Virus genome (UHGV): UHGV-0175871
Length of the DNA: 33,986 nucleotides
Source of the DNA: a virus
Direction: 5' to 3' (one strand)
Below are positions 6,160 through 33,340 of this stretch, one piece after another. Below the pieces are notes generated by a model, which saw only the letters and a list, made by a program, of their open reading frames with translations, was not told the DNA's origin and did no database searches. How positions within the stretch are numbered: the first letter of the stretch is position 1; each line of letters opens with the position of its first letter. Made by a program: the position numbers and the translations under genes.

Positions 6160-6708
6160 ATGCGCGCATCATTGATTAAATTAATTCATGTCGCCCGTCG
6201 CGATCTACAACTCGACGATGACACTTACCGCGCCTTTCTGGTGCAGTGCACGGGCAAAACCAGTTGCCGCGAGCTGTCCGTTGCACAACTGGAACGGGTG
6301 CTCGATGCCATGAAAGAGCGCGGTTTTAAGAAGCAGAAAAAACATCCCCGCCGTCGCTTTAAGGGGCATGTCACACCGCGCGAGAAGATTTACAAAATCT
6401 GGCAGCAGATGTTCCTTGATGGTTTCGTTTCCGATATCAGCGACGCTGCGCTGGACAAATACGTTGAGCGCCTGACAGCCAGACGTAATGGCGGTCAGGG
6501 TGTTTCCACGCTGGCATGGTGTCACGGGGAATCGTTGCAGGTTGTGCTTGAAACGCTCAAACAGTGGCATATGCGCTGCATCCGTGAAGCCTTTGCCCGA
6601 CATGGTGTGCCTTTACCTGTGAGCGAAACTGGGCGGGAGCTGCGCGGCTATGATGCACTGACCAGTGCGTATGCCCGTGCACGAAACAGCGGGAGAATTG
6701 CTGTATGA
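6160..6708 (+). CDS. gemA: GemA, gene expression modulator
   Basis: MRASLIKLIHVARRDLQLDDDTYRA... matches my recollection of Mu GemA; GGAGA RBS 7 nt before ATG 6160; an in-frame upstream ATG at 6145 is an alternative start. Confidence 0.8.
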   Translation: MRASLIKLIHVARRDLQLDDDTYRAFLVQCTGKTSCRELSVAQLERVLDAMKERGFKKQKKHPRRRFKGHVTPREKIYKIWQQMFLDGFVSDISDAALDKYVERLTARRNGGQGVSTLAWCHGESLQVVLETLKQWHMRCIREAFARHGVPLPVSETGRELRGYDALTSAYARARNSGRIAV

Positions 6709-7154
6709 AACAGATGAAAGAGCAGGATTTATTCGAAGACCTCCGGGACGACAGCGTTCTGGAATATCTTCATGATTACCAGGAAAACACCGCTTATCCG
6801 GCGTTACTTTCTGAACTGAACGCACTGCTGCGTAAAGAGCTGGCCCGGATTGGCGCAGACCCTGCCCATTCCCTTGAGCTGGTTGTGGCGATTTGTCGCC
6901 ATATCGGCGGGATGCAGGTTTATGTTCCGAGGGGGAATATTCTGGAGAATCTTGTCCGGGATATGCGTATCTGGCGTGATTTTAACGGCCATAATATTCC
7001 TGAACTGGTTCAGCGTTACGGGGTGACGTATAAAACCGTCTACAAGGCCATCAAACGGATGCGACGTCTGGAGCGCAATAAATACCAGCCGGATTTGTTT
7101 TACCCCTCCCCGAACCTGCCTCACCCCGTTCGTCGTCCGCCACGACGCCCTTAA
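6705..7154 (+). CDS. mor: Mor, middle-operon transcription activator (Mor/C family)
   Basis: 149 aa; the core LELVVAICRHIGGMQVYVPRG...IWRDFNGHNIPELVQRYGVTYKTVYKAIKRMRR matches Mor; extra proline/arginine-rich C-terminal tail; ATG overlaps the gemA stop (ATGA). Confidence 0.85.
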   Translation: MKQMKEQDLFEDLRDDSVLEYLHDYQENTAYPALLSELNALLRKELARIGADPAHSLELVVAICRHIGGMQVYVPRGNILENLVRDMRIWRDFNGHNIPELVQRYGVTYKTVYKAIKRMRRLERNKYQPDLFYPSPNLPHPVRRPPRRP

Positions 7155-7158
7155 TCAA

Positions 7159-7184
7159 TGAAGCCGGTAAATCCGGCTTTTTTT
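7159..7184 (+). terminator. Rho-independent terminator at the end of the early operon
   Basis: Stem AAGCCGG / loop TAAAT / CCGGCTT followed by seven T, 5 bp after the mor stop. Confidence 0.75.
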
Positions 7185-7199
7185 ATGCCTCCGGCACCA

Positions 7200-7228
7200 T
7201 GAAGCAGACCACGTTTAAATCTGCTTCA
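7200..7228 (+). promoter_or_regulatory. Inverted repeat upstream of the endolysin gene (candidate operator or 5' UTR hairpin)
   Basis: TGAAGCAG-13 nt-CTGCTTCA, ending 12 bp before the ATG at 7240. Confidence 0.35.
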
Positions 7229-7239
7229 CAGGTGCTTTT

Positions 7240-7836
7240 ATGGAAAATCAAAAATTCCCCCCGGCCTTTGAGCATGCGCTGAATTTCATTCTGCGTCCCG
7301 ATATCGAAGGCGTCTATGTCAATGACCCCACTGACCGTGGCGGCGAAACCAAATACGGCATTTCTGACCGCCGCGACGGTGTGATTGACGGCAAAACCGA
7401 TGTCAACGGCGACGGCAAACCGGATACCCGCATTAAGGATTTAACCCGCGAACAGGTCGCGCAGATTTACTGGCGCGATTACTGGCTGCCTGCCGGATGT
7501 GACCAGTGGCCTGATGGCGTGGCGATGTTTGTGTTCGATGCAGCGGTTCAGCATGGCGTTAAAAAAGCCATCAGAATTTTGCAGGAAGCCGCTGATGTGG
7601 ATGCTGACGGCATCATCGGCCCGCGTACCCGTAAGGCCGTGAGTCTGTCCACCCCGGACTGGTTGTTGGCCCGCTGCATTGTCCGTCGTTCCCGCTTTTA
7701 TGCCGACATCATCAAGTCAAAACCCGCCCAGGGTAAATACCTGAACGGCTGGTTTAACCGCATGGAAAAACTGACCGACGCCTGTCTGGAAATCATCGAT
7801 ACCCCTCTGGGCATCATGTCCGCCACGCGGGGGTGA
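7240..7836 (+). CDS. Endolysin, GH108 lysozyme domain plus peptidoglycan-binding domain
   Basis: N-terminal FPPAFEHALNFILRPDIEGVYVNDPTDRGGETKYGIS is the GH108 signature; C-terminal ADGIIGPRTRKAV...YLNGWFNRM resembles PG_binding_3. Confidence 0.85.
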   Translation: MENQKFPPAFEHALNFILRPDIEGVYVNDPTDRGGETKYGISDRRDGVIDGKTDVNGDGKPDTRIKDLTREQVAQIYWRDYWLPAGCDQWPDGVAMFVFDAAVQHGVKKAIRILQEAADVDADGIIGPRTRKAVSLSTPDWLLARCIVRRSRFYADIIKSKPAQGKYLNGWFNRMEKLTDACLEIIDTPLGIMSATRG

Positions 7837-7837
7837 T

Positions 7838-8065
7838 ATGGGCAAAGGCTGGGATGCCTCACTGAAAGCCGGGCGGCGTGACCGCCTGCGTCAGGAGGTT
7901 CTGCACCGCATGGCCGGAGGTTCGCCCCCGAAACCGCTGGACTATACCGGTCATGACGGCACACACGCCAGCTACTACATGCGTGGCTGGAACTCCGTGG
8001 ATACACGGGACATTTTCTGGCAGTGCCAGAAGTACAAGGAAAAACTCAATGCACAGAATGAATAG
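7838..8065 (+). CDS. Hypothetical small protein in the lysis cassette
   Basis: 75-aa ORF starting 2 bp after the endolysin stop; no recognisable family. Confidence 0.4.
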   Translation: MGKGWDASLKAGRRDRLRQEVLHRMAGGSPPKPLDYTGHDGTHASYYMRGWNSVDTRDIFWQCQKYKEKLNAQNE

Positions 8066-9055: not shown

Positions 9056-9279
9056 CCGACGAAATCGACCGCATCAGTGAAGTGGTTCTGAACGAACGTC
9101 AGAGCGTCGTTAAAGCCTGGCAGACGCGGACAAAAGAAGCGCCCCACAGCCGGGGCTTCTGCAATGACTGCGGGAACGTTATTCCGGCACAGCGCCTTGC
9201 GGCGCTGCCGGATGTGGTGACCTGTATTGACTGTCAGCAGATACGGGAACACAGGAGGAAATCGTGTCCTGGGAAATGA
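9052..9279 (+). CDS. TraR/DksA-family C4 zinc-finger protein
   Basis: 75 aa with CNDCGNVIPAQRLAALPDVVTCIDCQ (CxxC-17-CxxC) typical of phage TraR-like proteins. Confidence 0.7.
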   Translation: MTDEIDRISEVVLNERQSVVKAWQTRTKEAPHSRGFCNDCGNVIPAQRLAALPDVVTCIDCQQIREHRRKSCPGK

Positions 9280-12415: not shown

Positions 12416-13983
12416 ACCTGAAACAACTGGCCGGGGCCGTTCGCCGTCTGCTGAACCCGGCAACCGGTGAGGAAGACACGCTGAAAAAAGAGGCGCTCAA
12501 CGAAGCACAGGCCCGTCCGCGTCATGCCGGTGTGCGTTCGGCCTCGCCGGGTATCAGCGTCGCCTCCGGGCTGAACCCCGGCAGGCTGGCAGGCATTCTG
12601 CGCAATGCCGCCGACGGCATCACGCGTGATTTTTTTATCCTTGCTGAAGAGATGGAAGAGCGCGATTTGCATTACGCCTCGGTGCTGCGCACCCGCAAGC
12701 TGACGGTGGCGGGTATCGAACCGGTGGTGGTGGCCGCCAGTGATGACGATGCTGACGTGCAACTGGCGGACGCCATCCGTGCGCTGATGGAAGCCCCGCA
12801 AATCCCTGAGCTGATGTTTGATTTGCTCGACGGGCTGGGAAAAGGCGTGGCGGTCTGTGAAATCCTGTGGGACACCCGCAACAACCACTGGATGCCCCGT
12901 GATTATGAGTGGGTTGATCCCCGTTTTCTGAAAGCCGAAAAACCCACGCTGCGCCAGTTCCGCCTGCTGACTGACGATGAACCGGTGGATGGCGTATCGC
13001 TGACACCGGGAAAATTCATTGTTCACCAGCCGCGTCTGAAATCCGGTCTGCCGCTGCGTAACGGTCTGGCCCGTCTGGTAGCGGTGATGTACATGCTGAA
13101 ATCCTTTACCGTGCGTGACTGGTGGGCATTTGCGGAAAAGTTCGGCATTCCGGTCACGGTGGGGAAATACGGTCCCAACGCCACGGAGGAGCAAATCCGC
13201 GTACTGATTGATGCGATTGCGTCCATTGCCTCGGATGCCGGGTGTGCAATTCCGCAGTCCATGCAACTGGAGATGCAGGAAACCGCCAGCCGGAATAACG
13301 GCGGTGCACTGTTCTGTGAAATGGCGGAATGGTGCGATGCGCAAATCAGTAAGGCTGTGCTGGGGCAGACCATGACCACGGATAACGGCAGTTCGCGTTC
13401 ACAGGCGGACGTGCACAATCAGGTGCGTATGGACATTGTGCGCTGGGACGCGCGGCAGCTGGCTAACACGCTGAATGAATATCTGGTGCGTCCCTATATC
13501 GAGGCCAACTACGGGCCACAGGCGCAATACCCCCGTGTTGTTCTGCGTATCAGTGAAGCGGAAGATCTGAAGGCGCTGACAGATGCTCTGGTGCCACTGA
13601 TTGACCGGGGGATGCGGGTTCAGGAATCGGAGCTGCGGGACCGGTTCGGCCTGGCTGAACCGGACGACGGGGCTGATGTTCTGCATCCGGTGTCTGCCGG
13701 AATGTCAGGTGATGTGGCGATGAACCGCGAGCGCGTCGCCCTGAACCGGGAACACCCCGACGAACTGGCACAGATGGTGGATGATGCCCTGCGTGACTGG
13801 CAGAAAACCGGCGAAGCGTTCACGAACCCGGTGCTGACACTGGCGCAGGAATGCGACAGTTTTGATGACTTTCTGAAACGCCTGCCTGAGCTTCAGGAAA
13901 CGCTGAACGCGGACGACTTTGCCCTGCAACTGGCGGAGGTGTGCTTTAAGGCGCGTGCGCTGGGGGACACCGGTCATGCGTGA
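12412..13983 (+). CDS. Portal protein (Mu gp29/H-like, DUF935)
   Basis: 523 aa, start overlaps the terminase stop; conserved position between terminase and F. Confidence 0.8.
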   Translation: MNLKQLAGAVRRLLNPATGEEDTLKKEALNEAQARPRHAGVRSASPGISVASGLNPGRLAGILRNAADGITRDFFILAEEMEERDLHYASVLRTRKLTVAGIEPVVVAASDDDADVQLADAIRALMEAPQIPELMFDLLDGLGKGVAVCEILWDTRNNHWMPRDYEWVDPRFLKAEKPTLRQFRLLTDDEPVDGVSLTPGKFIVHQPRLKSGLPLRNGLARLVAVMYMLKSFTVRDWWAFAEKFGIPVTVGKYGPNATEEQIRVLIDAIASIASDAGCAIPQSMQLEMQETASRNNGGALFCEMAEWCDAQISKAVLGQTMTTDNGSSRSQADVHNQVRMDIVRWDARQLANTLNEYLVRPYIEANYGPQAQYPRVVLRISEAEDLKALTDALVPLIDRGMRVQESELRDRFGLAEPDDGADVLHPVSAGMSGDVAMNRERVALNREHPDELAQMVDDALRDWQKTGEAFTNPVLTLAQECDSFDDFLKRLPELQETLNADDFALQLAEVCFKARALGDTGHA

Positions 13984-14740
13984 AACTCTCATCCCGAAAG
14001 AGGCGCTGGCGTGGCTGAAGGCGAAGAAGCTGCGCCCCGGTTTTGATTACCGGGATGTATGGCGGGAAGAACACCGGAACAGCTTCACCGTGGCAAAAAT
14101 GCTGCAACTGGATTTGTTGTCGGATGTGAAAGTCCTTGTGGAAGACGCCCTGCAAAGCGGACAGACGTTCAGCGAGTTCCGGGAGGCGCTGCAACCGCTG
14201 CTGATAAAACGCGGATGGTGGGGTGTTCAGGAGATGGATGATCCGCTGACGGGCGAAACCCGAACCGTACAGCTGGGCAGCGACCGCCGCCTCCGCACGA
14301 TTTTTGACACCAACATGCGCACTGCCCGCGCGGCGGGCCAGTGGGAACGCATTCAGCGAACAAAGCGGGCCATGCCGTATCTGATTTACGAGCTGGGGCC
14401 ATCCCGCGAGCACCGGGCGGAGCATGTGAAATGGGCGCGTCTGTGTCTGCCGGTAGATCATCCGTTCTGGCAGACACATTTTGCCCCTAACGGCTGGGGC
14501 TGCAAATGCACCATCCGTCAGGTCAGCCGTGGTGAGTATGCGCAACTGGCGGCACAGGGCACCATTCACACCGAAGCGCCGGAAATCAGAACCGTCCGCT
14601 GGGTGAATAAACGCACGGGCGAAGAGGAAGACGTGCCGGAAGGGATTGATCCGGGCTGGAACTACAACCCCGGCATAAACCGTGAGCAGGAGCTGGCACG
14701 CCAGCTGGCAGCCAGACAGGCACGTTTTGACAGTGAATAA
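13976..14740 (+). CDS. F: Head morphogenesis protein, Mu F-like
   Basis: 254 aa from ATG 13976 (MRETLIPKEALAWLK...); contains a Mu-F/SPP1 gp7-type motif ...HFAPNGWGCKCTIRQV. Confidence 0.75.
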   Translation: MRETLIPKEALAWLKAKKLRPGFDYRDVWREEHRNSFTVAKMLQLDLLSDVKVLVEDALQSGQTFSEFREALQPLLIKRGWWGVQEMDDPLTGETRTVQLGSDRRLRTIFDTNMRTARAAGQWERIQRTKRAMPYLIYELGPSREHRAEHVKWARLCLPVDHPFWQTHFAPNGWGCKCTIRQVSRGEYAQLAAQGTIHTEAPEIRTVRWVNKRTGEEEDVPEGIDPGWNYNPGINREQELARQLAARQARFDSE

Positions 14741-14768
14741 CCCTCCCGCCGTAAATCCCCCTGAAACG

Positions 14769-14796
14769 CATCAGAAACGCGTTTTTTATTCTGATG
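14769..14796 (+). promoter_or_regulatory. Inverted repeat in the F-I non-coding region
   Basis: CATCAGAA-ACGCGTTTTTTA-TTCTGATG, 8-bp arms. Confidence 0.4.
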
Positions 14797-14818
14797 GCGT
14801 GAATGTGCATTCTGACTT

Positions 14819-14858
14819 TTTTGAAGGTGCTGTGGCGTTTTTGAAGGGGTTTTGAAGG
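14819..14858 (+). repeat. Three direct copies of TTTTGAAGG (candidate protein-binding array)
   Basis: Copies at 14819, 14839 and 14850; spacing 20 and 11 bp, roughly two and one helical turns. Confidence 0.5.
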
Positions 14859-14879
14859 GGGGGTTCTTCCCGTTTTCAG

Positions 14880-14905
14880 TGAAGCCGGTAAATCCGGCTT
14901 TTTTT
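14880..14905 (+). terminator. Rho-independent terminator, exact 26-nt copy of the one at 7159
   Basis: TGAAGCCGGTAAATCCGGCTTTTTTT identical to 7159-7184; lies between F and I. Confidence 0.7.
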
Positions 14906-14954
14906 CTGCCTTCCGCATACTGACCGTCGGTAACCCCAGACGACGGAGACTGAC

Positions 14955-15917
14955 ATGAAACCGGAACTGCTGGCGCTGTGTTTTTCCCTGCCAGAACCCA
15001 TCCCTGAGCTGACACCTGCTCAACTGCCGGAATGGCTTGAACTCGTTCCTGCGGGTGAGTTCACCGGGCGCGATGGCCGGACGTGGATTAACCGCAATCC
15101 GCATGAGGTGGTTGCCCGTTCGTCCGACATCAAAATTCCGGTGGACATTGAACACGCCACCGAAATTAAAGGGCAACGCGGTGATGAAGCCCCGGCGTAT
15201 GGCTGGGTGGAAGAACTGCGGGTGACAGACAGCGGCACCATTGAAGGCCGTGTTGTCTGGAGCGAATACGCCCGGTGGATGCTGAGCGAGCGCCGCTACC
15301 GCTATTACAGCCCGGCGTTTTTCCATGACGCGGAGGGTGTGGTGACGCGCCTGTCCAGCGTCGGGCTGACCAACAAACCTAATCTGGACTTTCCTGCACT
15401 GAATACGGAGAAAAACCCGATGACAGTACCTGTGCAAATCACCGGCCTGCTTGGGCTGGCTGAATCTGCCACGGTGGACGATACCGTGGCCGCCATTAAA
15501 CAACTTCAGGAGAACGAACAGGTGGCGCTGAACCGCGCACAGACACCTGACCTGACGAAGTTTGTACCGGTGGAAACCCACAATCTGGCACTGAACCGTG
15601 CCGAAACCGCAGAACAACGCCTTCAGCAACTGGAAGAGAAGGAAGCAGAAGCGCTTGTGGATGCGGCCATCGAAGCCGGAAAAGTGGCCCCGGCAAACCG
15701 TGACATGTTCCTTGCCACCTGCCGCACGGAAGAAGGCCGCAAACAGTTTGCGGAGTACACCAAAGGTGCACAGCCGCTGGTGAACAACGACAAGCCCAGC
15801 CAGGGCAAGGATAAACCCGCGCAGACACTGACCGACGCCGAACTGGCGATGTGCCGCAGCATGGGTATTACCGGGGAAGAGTTCCTCGCCGCTAAACCTA
15901 AACAGGAGAATAACTGA
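14955..15917 (+). CDS. I: Head maturation protease/scaffold, Mu I-like
   Basis: 320 aa; immediately upstream of the major capsid gene; coiled-coil scaffold-like C-terminal half. Confidence 0.7.
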   Translation: MKPELLALCFSLPEPIPELTPAQLPEWLELVPAGEFTGRDGRTWINRNPHEVVARSSDIKIPVDIEHATEIKGQRGDEAPAYGWVEELRVTDSGTIEGRVVWSEYARWMLSERRYRYYSPAFFHDAEGVVTRLSSVGLTNKPNLDFPALNTEKNPMTVPVQITGLLGLAESATVDDTVAAIKQLQENEQVALNRAQTPDLTKFVPVETHNLALNRAETAEQRLQQLEEKEAEALVDAAIEAGKVAPANRDMFLATCRTEEGRKQFAEYTKGAQPLVNNDKPSQGKDKPAQTLTDAELAMCRSMGITGEEFLAAKPKQENN

Positions 15918-16819
15918 TGGGAGCAGTCACTTCCGAAGTCCTTCACGCGCTGACCACCTGTCTGAGCGCCGCTTATACCCGTGGTCTGAGTGGTGTCACC
16001 CCACAGTGGCAGCGCATCGCCTCTGAAATCCCGAGTTCGTCCGCCTCCAATACCTACGGCTGGATGAAAGATTTACCGGAGATTAAGGAATGGGTCAGCG
16101 CCCGTCAGATGGCAACGCTGGACGGTTATGGTTACACCCTTGCGAACAAAACCTGGGAAAGTTCGATCCGCGTTAAACGCGAACACATTGAAGACGATCA
16201 GATTGGTCAGTACAGCATTATCGCTGAACGCTATGGCCGCCAGACGTCGGAGTTCCCGGACAAGCTGTGTTACCCCCTGCTGTGTGCCGGGTTTAACACC
16301 CTGTGTTTTGACGGTCAGAACTTCTTTGATGAAGACCACCCGCTGGGCGACGGCACCTGCAGCAACGTTGTCGGCACCCCGGCATCAGACCAGGGGGAAC
16401 CGTGGTTTCTGATTGATGATTCTCAGGTACTGAAACCCATCATCTGGCAGACGCGACGCGCCTTTAAGTTTGAAGCCCTGGATGATCTGAACAGCGAGCA
16501 TACCTTCAAGAATAACGAGTTCCTTTACGGGGTGGACGGTCGCTGCAATGCGGGCTTCGGCTTCTGGCAGACCGCCGTCGGTTCCCGTGCGGCACTGACA
16601 GCGGAGAACTACGAGAAGGCCAGCAATCTGCTGCTGGGTATGAAGACCACCAACGGTGAACCGCTGGGCATCCGCCCGACCACCCTTGTGGTGGGGCAGA
16701 AAAACCGTGCAGCCGCGAAGCGCATCATTGACGCCATGCTGGTTAACGGCGGCGATTCCAACATCTGGTACAAGGATGTGGACATCGTGGTCAGTCCGTT
16801 CATCACCACCCCGGCATAA
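15917..16819 (+). CDS. T: Major capsid protein, Mu T-like
   Basis: 300 aa; position after protease/scaffold; followed by a strong hairpin. Confidence 0.8.
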   Translation: MGAVTSEVLHALTTCLSAAYTRGLSGVTPQWQRIASEIPSSSASNTYGWMKDLPEIKEWVSARQMATLDGYGYTLANKTWESSIRVKREHIEDDQIGQYSIIAERYGRQTSEFPDKLCYPLLCAGFNTLCFDGQNFFDEDHPLGDGTCSNVVGTPASDQGEPWFLIDDSQVLKPIIWQTRRAFKFEALDDLNSEHTFKNNEFLYGVDGRCNAGFGFWQTAVGSRAALTAENYEKASNLLLGMKTTNGEPLGIRPTTLVVGQKNRAAAKRIIDAMLVNGGDSNIWYKDVDIVVSPFITTPA

Positions 16820-17209: not shown

Positions 17210-17646
17210 TGGGGTATATCACGCAGGAAGACCTGTTACGCGCGGACGGCAATCTTGTCTGGAACATGGCGATTAACCGGGAAACCAACGAACTGGATGA
17301 AGACAAAATCCGTCAGGCCATCAGTGATGCCGAAGCGGAAATTGATTCGTTTCTGTCCCGCCGCTACCAGCTGCCGCTGGGGGTGACGGAAATCCCGCGC
17401 CCGCTGCAACGCGTGGCGGTATCGCTGGCGTTTTACTGGTTGTCAGAGCGTGACAATCAAATCACGGAGCTGATCCAGAAACGCTACGATGACGCCATTA
17501 AAACCCTGCGTGAGATGGCGAACGGCACCCGTGACCTGGGTCTGCCGACGTATGCCACCCCGGCAGAAACCGACCACGGGAAGATCATTGTAGTGGGTGC
17601 CAATGCCCGGCTGTTCACCCGTAACAACCTGAAAGGGGTGCTGTGA
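17209..17646 (+). CDS. Mu gp36-like protein (DUF1320, putative head-tail connector)
   Basis: 145 aa; start overlaps the previous stop. Confidence 0.55.
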   Translation: MGYITQEDLLRADGNLVWNMAINRETNELDEDKIRQAISDAEAEIDSFLSRRYQLPLGVTEIPRPLQRVAVSLAFYWLSERDNQITELIQKRYDDAIKTLREMANGTRDLGLPTYATPAETDHGKIIVVGANARLFTRNNLKGVL

Positions 17647-32454: not shown

Positions 32455-33031
32455 GGAATGCATCGTGGAAATCAAAGAAATCATTAATCCCCGCTATACA
32501 GAAAATAGCGCTGTAGACTGTGACGTTTGGTTTGACGGCCAGCCGCAGCCAGTCCCTTACACTGCCACTCCTGATGATACATCAACAATCGGTAAGCGCA
32601 TCTGGCAGGAACTGCAAAGCGGCAAATGGGGCGAAATCGCCCCGTTCACCATCACGCCGGAGCTTATCGCAGCGGCAAAAGATGCCAAAAAGATGGAAAT
32701 CGAGGCGTGGCGCACAGAACAGGAAGCGCAGCCGTTCACGTTCGAATGGAACGGTCGCACCTGGAACGCTGGCCCCGACTCACTGGCCCGTCTTTATCCT
32801 GTGGTAATGGCGGCGAAATCTGACACAGCGCGGGACGTGATGACGTGGGGTGACGCCGATAATCAACAGGTGAAACTGTCAATGCCGGAACTGGAAGAAC
32901 TGGCGACAGCAATGGCGCAGGCACAGGTCGATCGCAATGACGGGATTTATCAGCGCCAGCGTGAAATGAAGGAGCAGCTTTCCCGGCTGTCCATACTGGA
33001 CGAGGTGAGAGCGTTAACTGTCGGTGATTAA
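32429..33031 (+). CDS. Putative tail fibre assembly chaperone, second module
   Basis: About 190-200 aa; likely GTG start at 32465 after GAGGAA (the track start is a TTG overlapping the fibre gene); assignment by position after the fibre gene. Confidence 0.45.
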   Translation: MGFLFAQREECIVEIKEIINPRYTENSAVDCDVWFDGQPQPVPYTATPDDTSTIGKRIWQELQSGKWGEIAPFTITPELIAAAKDAKKMEIEAWRTEQEAQPFTFEWNGRTWNAGPDSLARLYPVVMAAKSDTARDVMTWGDADNQQVKLSMPELEELATAMAQAQVDRNDGIYQRQREMKEQLSRLSILDEVRALTVGD

Positions 33032-33053
33032 ATAATCAGTATGTATAGTTTAT

Positions 33054-33081
33054 GACGATCGATAACATCATATCGATCGTC
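33054..33081 (+). promoter_or_regulatory. GATC-containing inverted repeat upstream of com-mom (candidate Dam-methylation-sensitive operator)
   Basis: GACGATCGATA-ACATCA-TATCGATCGTC: 11-bp arms each with a GATC, about 75 bp upstream of com. Confidence 0.55.
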
Positions 33082-33154
33082 GGTTTGCATCAATTGTGAT
33101 TAAATACCCCCAGCCCTCCGGGCGCTCATGTCTGGTTATTACACAGGGGGAATC

Positions 33155-33340
33155 ATGGACTCTGTTCGCTGTAAAAACTGCAATAAATTACTGTTTAAAG
33201 GAGGTTTTAAGCATATAGAAATTAAATGCCCTCGCTGTAAACGTTACATTGTCATATCGAATGCCAAAGAGCATCCCACGGAGCTGTATTGTGGGAAAAG
33301 AGAAGAAATCACGCATTCTGACAAAACCCTGCGTTATTGA
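33155..33340 (+). CDS. com: Com, zinc-finger translational activator of mom
   Basis: 61 aa from ATG 33155 after AGGGGG; [10 protein letters not shown]...[13 protein letters not shown]...[22 protein letters not shown] matches Mu Com. Confidence 0.8.

Follow-up and report, generated by a model that had tools for sequence, protein, structure and literature searches.

The interval between F and I

The window analyzed here is the whole 33,986-bp stretch of UHGV virus genome UHGV-0175871, an Escherichia coli Mu-like prophage with every gene on the + strand. The gene set comprises transposase A, B, Gam, GemA, a Mor-family activator, an endolysin, the terminase, and a Mu-type portal, while the rest of the window carries F, the I protease, the major head protein T (15917-16819), tail genes, and com/mom. 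Between the end of F and the start of I lies a non-coding gap (14741-14954), in which an inverted repeat, three short direct repeats, and a hairpin overlapping an activator site follow one another (Table 1). This gap probably consists of two independent modules derived from an ancestor shared with Mu: a near-central site for DNA gyrase, related to Mu's strong gyrase site (SGS), and then a terminator with a Mor-dependent promoter for the I operon.

The relationship with Mu is visible from the gap alone. When it was used as a single nhmmer query against both strands of the whole Mu genome, the better match was the middle promoter Pm directly after mor (Mu 9165-9217, E = 2.6e-4). The other was the gap between G and I, from the right of the gyrase cut through the promoter PI to the I leader (Mu 17887-18045, E = 8.7e-3), and no further match was found below E = 0.6. 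The layout of Mu given in the original prediction was correct, with G between F and I, the gyrase cut annotated at 17879/80, and the start of I at 18056. The alignment to the SGS and PI which that prediction had proposed is positive as well, with the right arm of the SGS and PI both included in the match. Absence of similarity to these two elements had been named as evidence that would speak against it; similarity is present, because the gap by itself matches the G-I gap of Mu.

The proposal that the gap contains no open reading frame (ORF) agrees with RefSeq, which annotates no gene in the equivalent gap of three relatives, and the ORFs that can be drawn here are overlapping or antisense ones only. 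Conservation among the E. coli copies is 97% for the gap, and the 1.1-kb F-I region used as the query for them (gap included) is 95-97% identical. An Rfam scan at the gathering threshold found no family in the whole window, and the consensus for integration host factor (IHF), WATCAANNNNTTR, is absent from both strands of the gap.

Table 1. Coordinates of the features of the F-I gap and of the associated genes and sites in the window.
Feature	Position	Strand	Remarks
mor orthologue	6705-7154	+	Pfam Mor 3.6e-30; presumed activator of both cassettes
Second cassette copy, between mor and lys	7155-7208	+	Same Mor box, identical hairpin and T7
Endolysin (lys)	7240-7836	+	
F (minor head protein, Mu F-like)	13976-14740; stop codon 14738-14740	+	Pfam Phage_Mu_F; start taken from RefSeq relatives; left boundary of the gap
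Decayed dyad CGCCGTAAATCCCCCT	14747-14762	+	From the alignment of relatives; GTAAATCC repeat D8
Inverted repeat, arms CATCAGAA (14769-14776) and TTCTGATG (14789-14796), 12-nt gap	14766-14800	+	
Predicted 4-bp gyrase stagger GAAT	14801-14804	.	Placed by extending the alignment without gaps to Mu 17876-17879 (AATC)
Three AT boxes split by G-rich stretches	14815-14863	+	Homologue of the Mu SGS right arm, Mu 17888-17937
Box 1 TTTTTTGAAGG	14817-14827	+	
Box 2 TTTTTGAAGGGG	14838-14849	+	
Box 3 TTTTGAAGGGGGGG	14850-14863	+	
Mor box AGTGAAGCCGGTAAAT	14878-14893	+	-51 to -36 from the predicted start; dyad position according to PMC4287176
GC-rich hairpin GAAGCCGG-TAAAT-CCGGCTTT with T7	14881-14905	+	Shares bases with the Mor box and with the -35 region
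-10 hexamer CATACT, no -35 hexamer	14916-14921	+	10 nt past T7, like TATCCT in Mu Pm
Leader hairpin CCGTCG...CGACGG, -9.7 kcal/mol	14924-14946	+	3' arm overlaps the ribosome-binding site of I
Predicted transcription start of the I operon	14929	+	8 nt past the hexamer as in Mu Pm; placed by analogy
I (head protease/scaffold): ribosome-binding site GGAG and ATG	14944-14957; gene 14955-15917	+	Pfam Mu-like_Pro

The box array as a probable counterpart of the Mu strong gyrase site

The motif TTTTGAAGG occurs exactly three times in the 34-kb window, all inside the gap, while the chance expectation for a given 9-mer is about 0.26 exact copies in the 68 kb of the two strands. The three copies start at 14819, 14839, and 14850, so that the description of them as direct repeats at helical-turn spacing (20 + 11 bp, equal to two turns and one) is accurate. 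They correspond to the three TTTAAAC boxes in the Mu SGS right arm, where TTTTTTAAAAC is followed after 20 bp by TTTTTAAAC and after another 11 bp by TATTTAAC. The spacing of 20 + 11 bp is common to Mu, the Klebsiella phage Kp4866-3, and the window, and it is 21 + 11 bp in prophages of Rheinheimera and Vibrio.

The regions around homologues of T were taken from 80 bacterial genomes, and the gaps upstream of I were extracted. Ten enterobacterial gaps are alignable from end to end, and the three boxes are the best-conserved block of this alignment. Boxes 2 and 3 are invariant in seven E. coli sequences. The profile of nine enterobacterial gaps, from which the window was left out, has a sole match in Mu under the inclusion threshold, at 17888-17937 (E = 4.3e-6), and its best match in the window is at 14815-14860 (E = 0.03). 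With the window included, the profile matches Mu at 17883-17937 (E = 8.5e-7). Such box pairs are found upstream of I in about two dozen of the 80 Mu-like loci, including those of Vibrio, Aeromonas, Idiomarina, Ectothiorhodospiraceae, Burkholderiaceae, and Devosia. The array is present in Mu-like prophages of the alpha-, beta-, and gammaproteobacteria.

The part of the Mu site to which the boxes align is the functionally important one. Deleting the SGS right arm abolishes the preference of gyrase for the site, whereas the left arm can be done without (PMC13284261; PMC10052514). Cryo-electron microscopy (cryo-EM) has shown that the right arm wraps one C-terminal domain (CTD) of GyrA and presents the T-segment; its AT repeats face the CTD via the minor groove, and its GC repeats are turned outward (PMC11626157). 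A 133-bp Mu fragment and a consensus motif are given in the supplement of the Topo-Seq study, and the centre of the fragment gives a 4-bp overhang at Mu 17876-17879 (PMC6379681). Relative to the cut, the AT centres of the Mu boxes lie at +19.5, +40, and +52, and the AT peaks of the Topo-Seq consensus at +20.5, +40, and +51. The boxes of the window fit that register if position 0 is set at 14801.

The location within the element is similar. The center is the best position for the SGS in Mu (PMC10052514), and the Mu site itself lies at 48.7% of the genome. The gap had been said to lie near the middle of the element, and the boxes are indeed at 45.2% of the 35,259-bp colinear prophage of strain ETEC1732, about 1.7 kb left of its center, and at 44% in the RM11911 prophage. 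Homology of the array to the Mu SGS is well supported, and the idea that the gap holds the equivalent of the central Mu site gains from it; its strength as a gyrase site is predicted from that likeness. The array had been viewed as a cluster of protein-binding sites; the repeats are most likely phased AT/GC bending signals for the gyrase wrap rather than classical operators.

Based on these parallels, a module at about 14780-14870 would be the counterpart of the central SGS of Mu. Gyrase would bind with its G-segment at about 14785-14820 and with the box array wrapped on one GyrA CTD, would cut near 14801-14804, and would supercoil the DNA processively. This supercoiling may extrude the 35-kb prophage as a loop, by which both ends would meet for transposase synapsis, as at the Mu SGS.

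Three substitute scores for gyrase sites carry no weight either way, because none of them ranked the real SGS first in Mu. For the strong/weak match to the right arm of the consensus, which bears on the phasing of AT and GC signals at about 10.75 bp in a Mu-type site, the window scores 33/50 and Mu 34/50 (about +2 standard deviations), values which are non-discriminating in that neither is the top score in its own genome. Identity to the 133-bp Topo-Seq consensus was calculated for Mu, the window, and Kp4866-3, and this score was discarded because its top sites did not include the true Mu SGS. The Fourier measure of 10-11 bp AT periodicity is uninformative as well: depending on window size, 12-32 independent Mu peaks stand above the SGS, and the power of the window gap, similar to that of the Mu SGS, comes from a different sub-segment.

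Box-like sequences also occur elsewhere in the window. When distant relatives and Mu were used for a profile, without the enterobacterial gaps, its best match in the window was the pair GATTTAAACCGTTTTTTAAGGG at 27535-27556 in a baseplate gene (E = 0.009), probably by chance. A second box-like pair lies on the opposite strand of the same stretch of this gene (27535-27587).

The left part of the gap

The 8-bp-arm inverted repeat reported earlier is present as described, with arms that are complementary at 8/8 positions. It extends to an 11-pair hairpin with a stability of -10.7 kcal/mol (z = -2.9), which none of 200 shuffled sequences equaled. The repeat does not vary among the E. coli relatives, other genera lack it, and it is predicted to sit in the left part of the gyrase G-segment. 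The decayed dyad CGCCGTAAATCCCCCT is the counterpart of an intact hairpin, GAGGCGGTAATCCGCCTC, which in Klebsiella-type relatives immediately follows the stop codon of F. The core of this dyad resembles the Mor-box hairpin.

At the predicted cut, the E. coli lineage, the window included, reads GGCGT/GAAT/GTGCA. Other enterobacterial genera possess a conserved block, TGTGRTACGATG, where the top-strand cut of Mu aligns. Read as GGTAC/GATG/ATTCT, this block resembles the Topo-Seq consensus GGTAT/GNNC/ATACC. Among the collected loci it occurs in L003 (3936-3947), L005-L012, and L081, and also in L025, L038, and L039; in distant phages it reads TACGATG.

The string CATCAGAAACGCGT at 14769-14782 is similar, with one indel, to CATCAGAAAACGCGT from the coding sequence of Mu G, at its 3' end (17825-17839), either by chance or as a trace of a lost G. 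The notion of the gap as the remnant of a deleted G was dropped: the register to the boxes is off by about 19 bp, and the string does not occur in other genera.

The predicted terminator and promoter upstream of I

The second module combines a terminator with an activator site. The original prediction placed an intrinsic terminator at this point, and a GC-rich hairpin followed by seven T (T7) is there. It does not stand as a separate element: it overlaps a Mor box, and in Mu Pm the same hairpin does so too. The hairpin has an 8-bp stem (5 GC pairs), a 5-nt loop, and a stability of -12.6 kcal/mol (z = -3.7), by which it qualifies as an intrinsic terminator. The number of candidates from a generic terminator scan does not exceed that in shuffled sequences (3 found, 2.0 +/- 1.4 expected). 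A stretch of 26 bases including the hairpin (TGAAGCCGGTAAATCCGGCTTTTTTT, 14880-14905) has an identical second copy (7160-7185), located past the stop codon of mor and ahead of lys, where no chance match of this kind is expected.

The Mor box, AGTGAAGCCGGTAAAT, covers the left arm and loop of the hairpin and is identical at 14 of 16 bases to the Mor-binding dyad of Mu Pm, AGTAAAGCCGGTTAAT. In Mu, the sequence directly after mor is cagtAAAGCCGGTTAATCCGGCTTTTTTTacgtcctcaaTATCCTgtgatgA. The Mor dyad of Pm extends from -51 to -36, and the bottom-strand T residues at -12, -4, -1, +1, +3, and +4 are sensitive to permanganate (PMC4287176). From these positions, it follows that the Pm hexamer is TATCCT (-13 to -8), that +1 is the A located 8 nt further on, and that the dyad is AGTAAAGC/CGGTTAAT. 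The hairpin's own symmetry, centered at about -37 or -38, was considered as the activator site and dropped, for the Mor dyad of the literature lies 5.5 bp upstream, with its center at -43.5.

A sigma-70 promoter scan of 14000-15600 found no complete promoter, as would be expected of a promoter that depends on an activator. The copy upstream of lys has the -10 hexamer CACCAT (7195-7200) followed by a hairpin arm (7201-7208), and its hexamer spacing is the same as in the copy upstream of I. Kp4866-3 likewise has the cassette upstream of both lys and I. Across the I modules of the enterobacterial relatives, the Mor box is kept in 10/10 and a good U-tract in 3/10. This points to activator binding as the function that is conserved, with termination probably a secondary and lineage-specific use of the hairpin.

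The gap had also been put forward as a candidate activator-dependent late promoter. This is borne out for the activator site, which is a Mor (Pm)-type box; the box is not of the PI (C) type, and just the -10 region and leader are PI-like. The module at 14878-14929 would then couple a terminator to a promoter of the Pm type. The transcript running from lys to F would end at the hairpin and T7. Mor, made from the early operon, would bind the box over the hairpin and recruit RNA polymerase to the CATACT promoter, which has no -35 hexamer, and I, T, and the downstream genes would be transcribed from about 14929. The same cassette after mor would drive lys.

Independence of the two modules and the leader hairpins

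The distance between boxes and promoter varies among relatives, with a 21-bp indel in Klebsiella types and about 250 bp in Aeromonas and Rheinheimera prophages, which indicates that the gyrase and promoter modules are independent. The boxes are also unlikely to be an upstream promoter element, because this distance is variable and the cassette copy at lys has no boxes.

The leader hairpin upstream of I would form in read-through RNA only, since its 5' arm ends at the predicted +1. Hairpins of this kind (-8 to -14 kcal/mol), located directly after the -10 hexamer and with the 5' arm ending at about +1, were seen at 11 of 12 Mor/C-type promoters. Examples are found in the window (14922-14946 and 7201-7227), in Mu (18024-18050 and 9217-9250), and in loci L008, L010, L011, L012, L081, and L086. 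The sequences of the stems vary between promoters while their complementarity is kept. By silencing read-through RNA, the leader hairpins might restrict the expression of each operon to its own Mor-activated start.

Mor and the regulatory cascade

The Mor-like activator assumed in the original prediction has an orthologue encoded in the window, which shares 63% identity with Mu Mor (E = 9e-63) and 32% with Mu C. When Mu C was searched against the window by tblastn, the mor locus was the only match (32% identity), and neither a C gene nor a second member of the family was found. Likewise, a C box (a dyad of the TTAT-N6-ATAA type with its center at -43.5) is not present upstream of I, where the box is of the Pm/Mor type. 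According to the literature, the Mor and C dyads are related.

Right after lys, at 7838-8044, lies a homologue of Mu E18 (68% identity), the first gene of the Pm operon in Mu. Compared with Mu, the stretch from the remaining middle operon through C to Plys is missing. With Mor and without C, the cascade appears to have two steps, from early genes to Mor to all morphogenesis genes, and not the three of Mu.

Alternative explanations

The reading of the gap as a gyrase site followed by a promoter was weighed against others. It is fairly unlikely that the gap contains only the terminator and promoter, without a strong gyrase site, and that the boxes were kept by descent or serve the promoter through curved DNA or contact with the alpha-CTD. 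Several observations do weigh on that side. The window boxes have diverged from the deep consensus, with TTTGAAG instead of TTTAAAC, and the profile of distant relatives and Mu does not detect them. At the predicted cleavage point, the window and the related E. coli prophages lack the core block TGTGRTACGATG of other genera. With a position at 45% rather than 50% of the element, the boxes are 1.7 kb off center, and their phase and periodicity scores are unexceptional. The main reading is also weakened by a result of Oram and Pato, who in 2004 reportedly found that positional equivalents in Haemophilus and Salmonella prophages did not support Mu replication; homology is therefore no guarantee of a strong site. 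It has limits on the promoter side as well, where the hexamers CACCAT and CATACT are weak and the start site and Mor dependence of the I promoter are proposed by analogy with Mu Pm. A function in the promoter is hard to reconcile, however, with the box-free promoter copy at lys and with a box-to-promoter distance that varies among relatives (about 20 to about 250 bp) without holding the helical phase. Two further points speak against this alternative: the boxes are the best-conserved non-coding element of the gap across bacterial classes, and they align to the arm of the Mu site that is essential for gyrase action.

The boxes could instead bind another sequence-specific protein, from the phage or the host nucleoid, as an iteron- or enhancer-like element at the center of the prophage. 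TTTAAAC and the GG that follows are near-unchanged where the major head proteins are just 40-60% identical, which seems stricter than what an indirect readout of bendability calls for. This alternative is nevertheless very unlikely: Mu is not known to have such a protein, the Mu arm has been located on the GyrA CTD by cryo-EM and footprinting, TTTGAAG is tolerated in the E. coli lineage, the gap has no IHF consensus, and the box profile has no match at the prophage ends, where the transposase sites are. It is quite unlikely, too, that the near-invariant TTTAAAC-NN-GG units form a sequence-specific signature, beyond bendability, that is read by a conserved protein surface, be it the GyrA CTD or a phage or host factor. 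The E. coli lineage, with its TTTGAAG, replaced core, and added inverted repeat, would in that case be a retuned version. Finally, the strong terminator just 50 nt before the I start codon and the hairpin upstream of it could mark a small non-coding RNA or an attenuator ending at 14881-14905. This is scarcely probable, with no sigma-70-like promoter in the region scanned, no Rfam family anywhere in the window, a terminator that is explained as part of the Pm-type cassette and found after mor as well, and a U-tract that is lost in 7/10 relatives. A near-central gyrase site followed by a Mor-dependent promoter is the preferred explanation of the gap.

The prophage and its relatives

As shown by the colinear ETEC1732 prophage, the window spans from the start codon of ner to the stop codon of mom. 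That prophage (35,259 bp) starts with TGTATTGATTCAC and finishes with GCCGCTTCA, with a 5-bp target duplication on either side. It is inserted in flhA (locus L092, 1656-36914), which is disrupted, with the duplication GCTAT. The RM11911 prophage (locus L001, 5055-40208) is inserted in gspE, also disrupted, with the duplication TCCCG. Among 5,426 complete E. coli genomes, 46 carry copies of the family, whose F-I regions are 95-99.8% identical. The closest sequenced phage is Kp4866-3, whose F-I region is 68% identical. The early and tail-fiber regions are mosaic between related copies.

The homologue of G is located instead at 17643-18188 (Pfam PF05069, virion morphogenesis) and shares 24% identity with full-length Mu G. 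This gene is placed after the gp36 homologue, and the F-I interval is without G. The order portal-F-gap-I without G is common to prophages of Klebsiella, Serratia, Raoultella, Aeromonas, Corallincola, and Rheinheimera.

Upstream of com/mom (33031-33155), GATC sites are clustered in an inverted repeat, and GATTAAATACCCCCAG is also found there. The latter is similar to C-type boxes of Mu, for instance ATAACCCCAG of PI, yet the phage has no C gene.

Implications

Three AT boxes spaced by 20/21 + 11 bp just upstream of I provide a signature for central gyrase sites in uncharacterized Mu-like prophages. Because the Mu SGS is the reference substrate for the mechanism and structure of gyrase, natural variants of it such as the present one are ready-made tests of the features that determine the strength of a site. 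The regulation of this lineage would be simpler than that of Mu, with one Mor and two terminator-promoter cassettes for the lysis, head, and tail genes and no C. Current understanding is not overturned by these results; rather, Mu biology is extended to a lineage that about 1% of complete E. coli genomes carry.

Comparison with known elements of Mu

The array resembles the Mu SGS in its location, in the gap directly upstream of I and near the center of a transposable prophage, and in its right arm, with three AT boxes at 20 + 11 bp and GC-rich sequence between them. In contrast to the Mu SGS, which is cut at 17875/76 and 17879/80, the gene upstream is F and not G, the boxes have TTTGAAG in place of TTTAAAC, and neither the core nor the left arm shows a sequence relationship. 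The candidate site is placed at 45% of the length, compared with 48.7% in Mu.

Oram and Pato are said to have described in 2004 SGS-like sites of Mu-like prophages, including Sp18 of E. coli O157 Sakai. To our knowledge, the prophage family of the window was not among the sites tested in that work. It represents a lineage different from the Sp18-type prophages, and an Sp18-like prophage of O157 has three boxes at 11-bp spacing after G. The Sakai site is able to replace the Mu SGS (PMC10052514). In an O157:H7 Sp18-like prophage (locus L085, 2157-2237), the RefSeq annotation places a 'tRNA-OTHER' between F and G, on the minus strand.

The cassette shares with Mu Pm an identical hairpin stem, T7, the 10 nt to the -10 hexamer, and the lack of a -35 hexamer, as well as the Mor box (14/16) and a Mor encoded upstream (63% identity). 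The loop differs, being TAAAT in the window and TTAAT in Mu. Additionally, the cassette is used twice, upstream of lys and I, where its direct targets would be the morphogenesis genes and not a middle operon encoding C. The Pm hairpin is presumably also the early terminator of Mu.

Mu PI is likewise upstream of I, and its -10 region and leader, CCTCCCGCAAACTGAC, correspond to CCTTCCGCATACTGAC in the window, 41 and 42 nt before the ATG, respectively. In both, a hairpin follows the promoter. The window nevertheless has no C gene, and a Mor-type box stands in place of the C-type box. Overall, both elements of the gap belong to kinds already known from Mu, the first to the SGS and the second to the Pm promoter.

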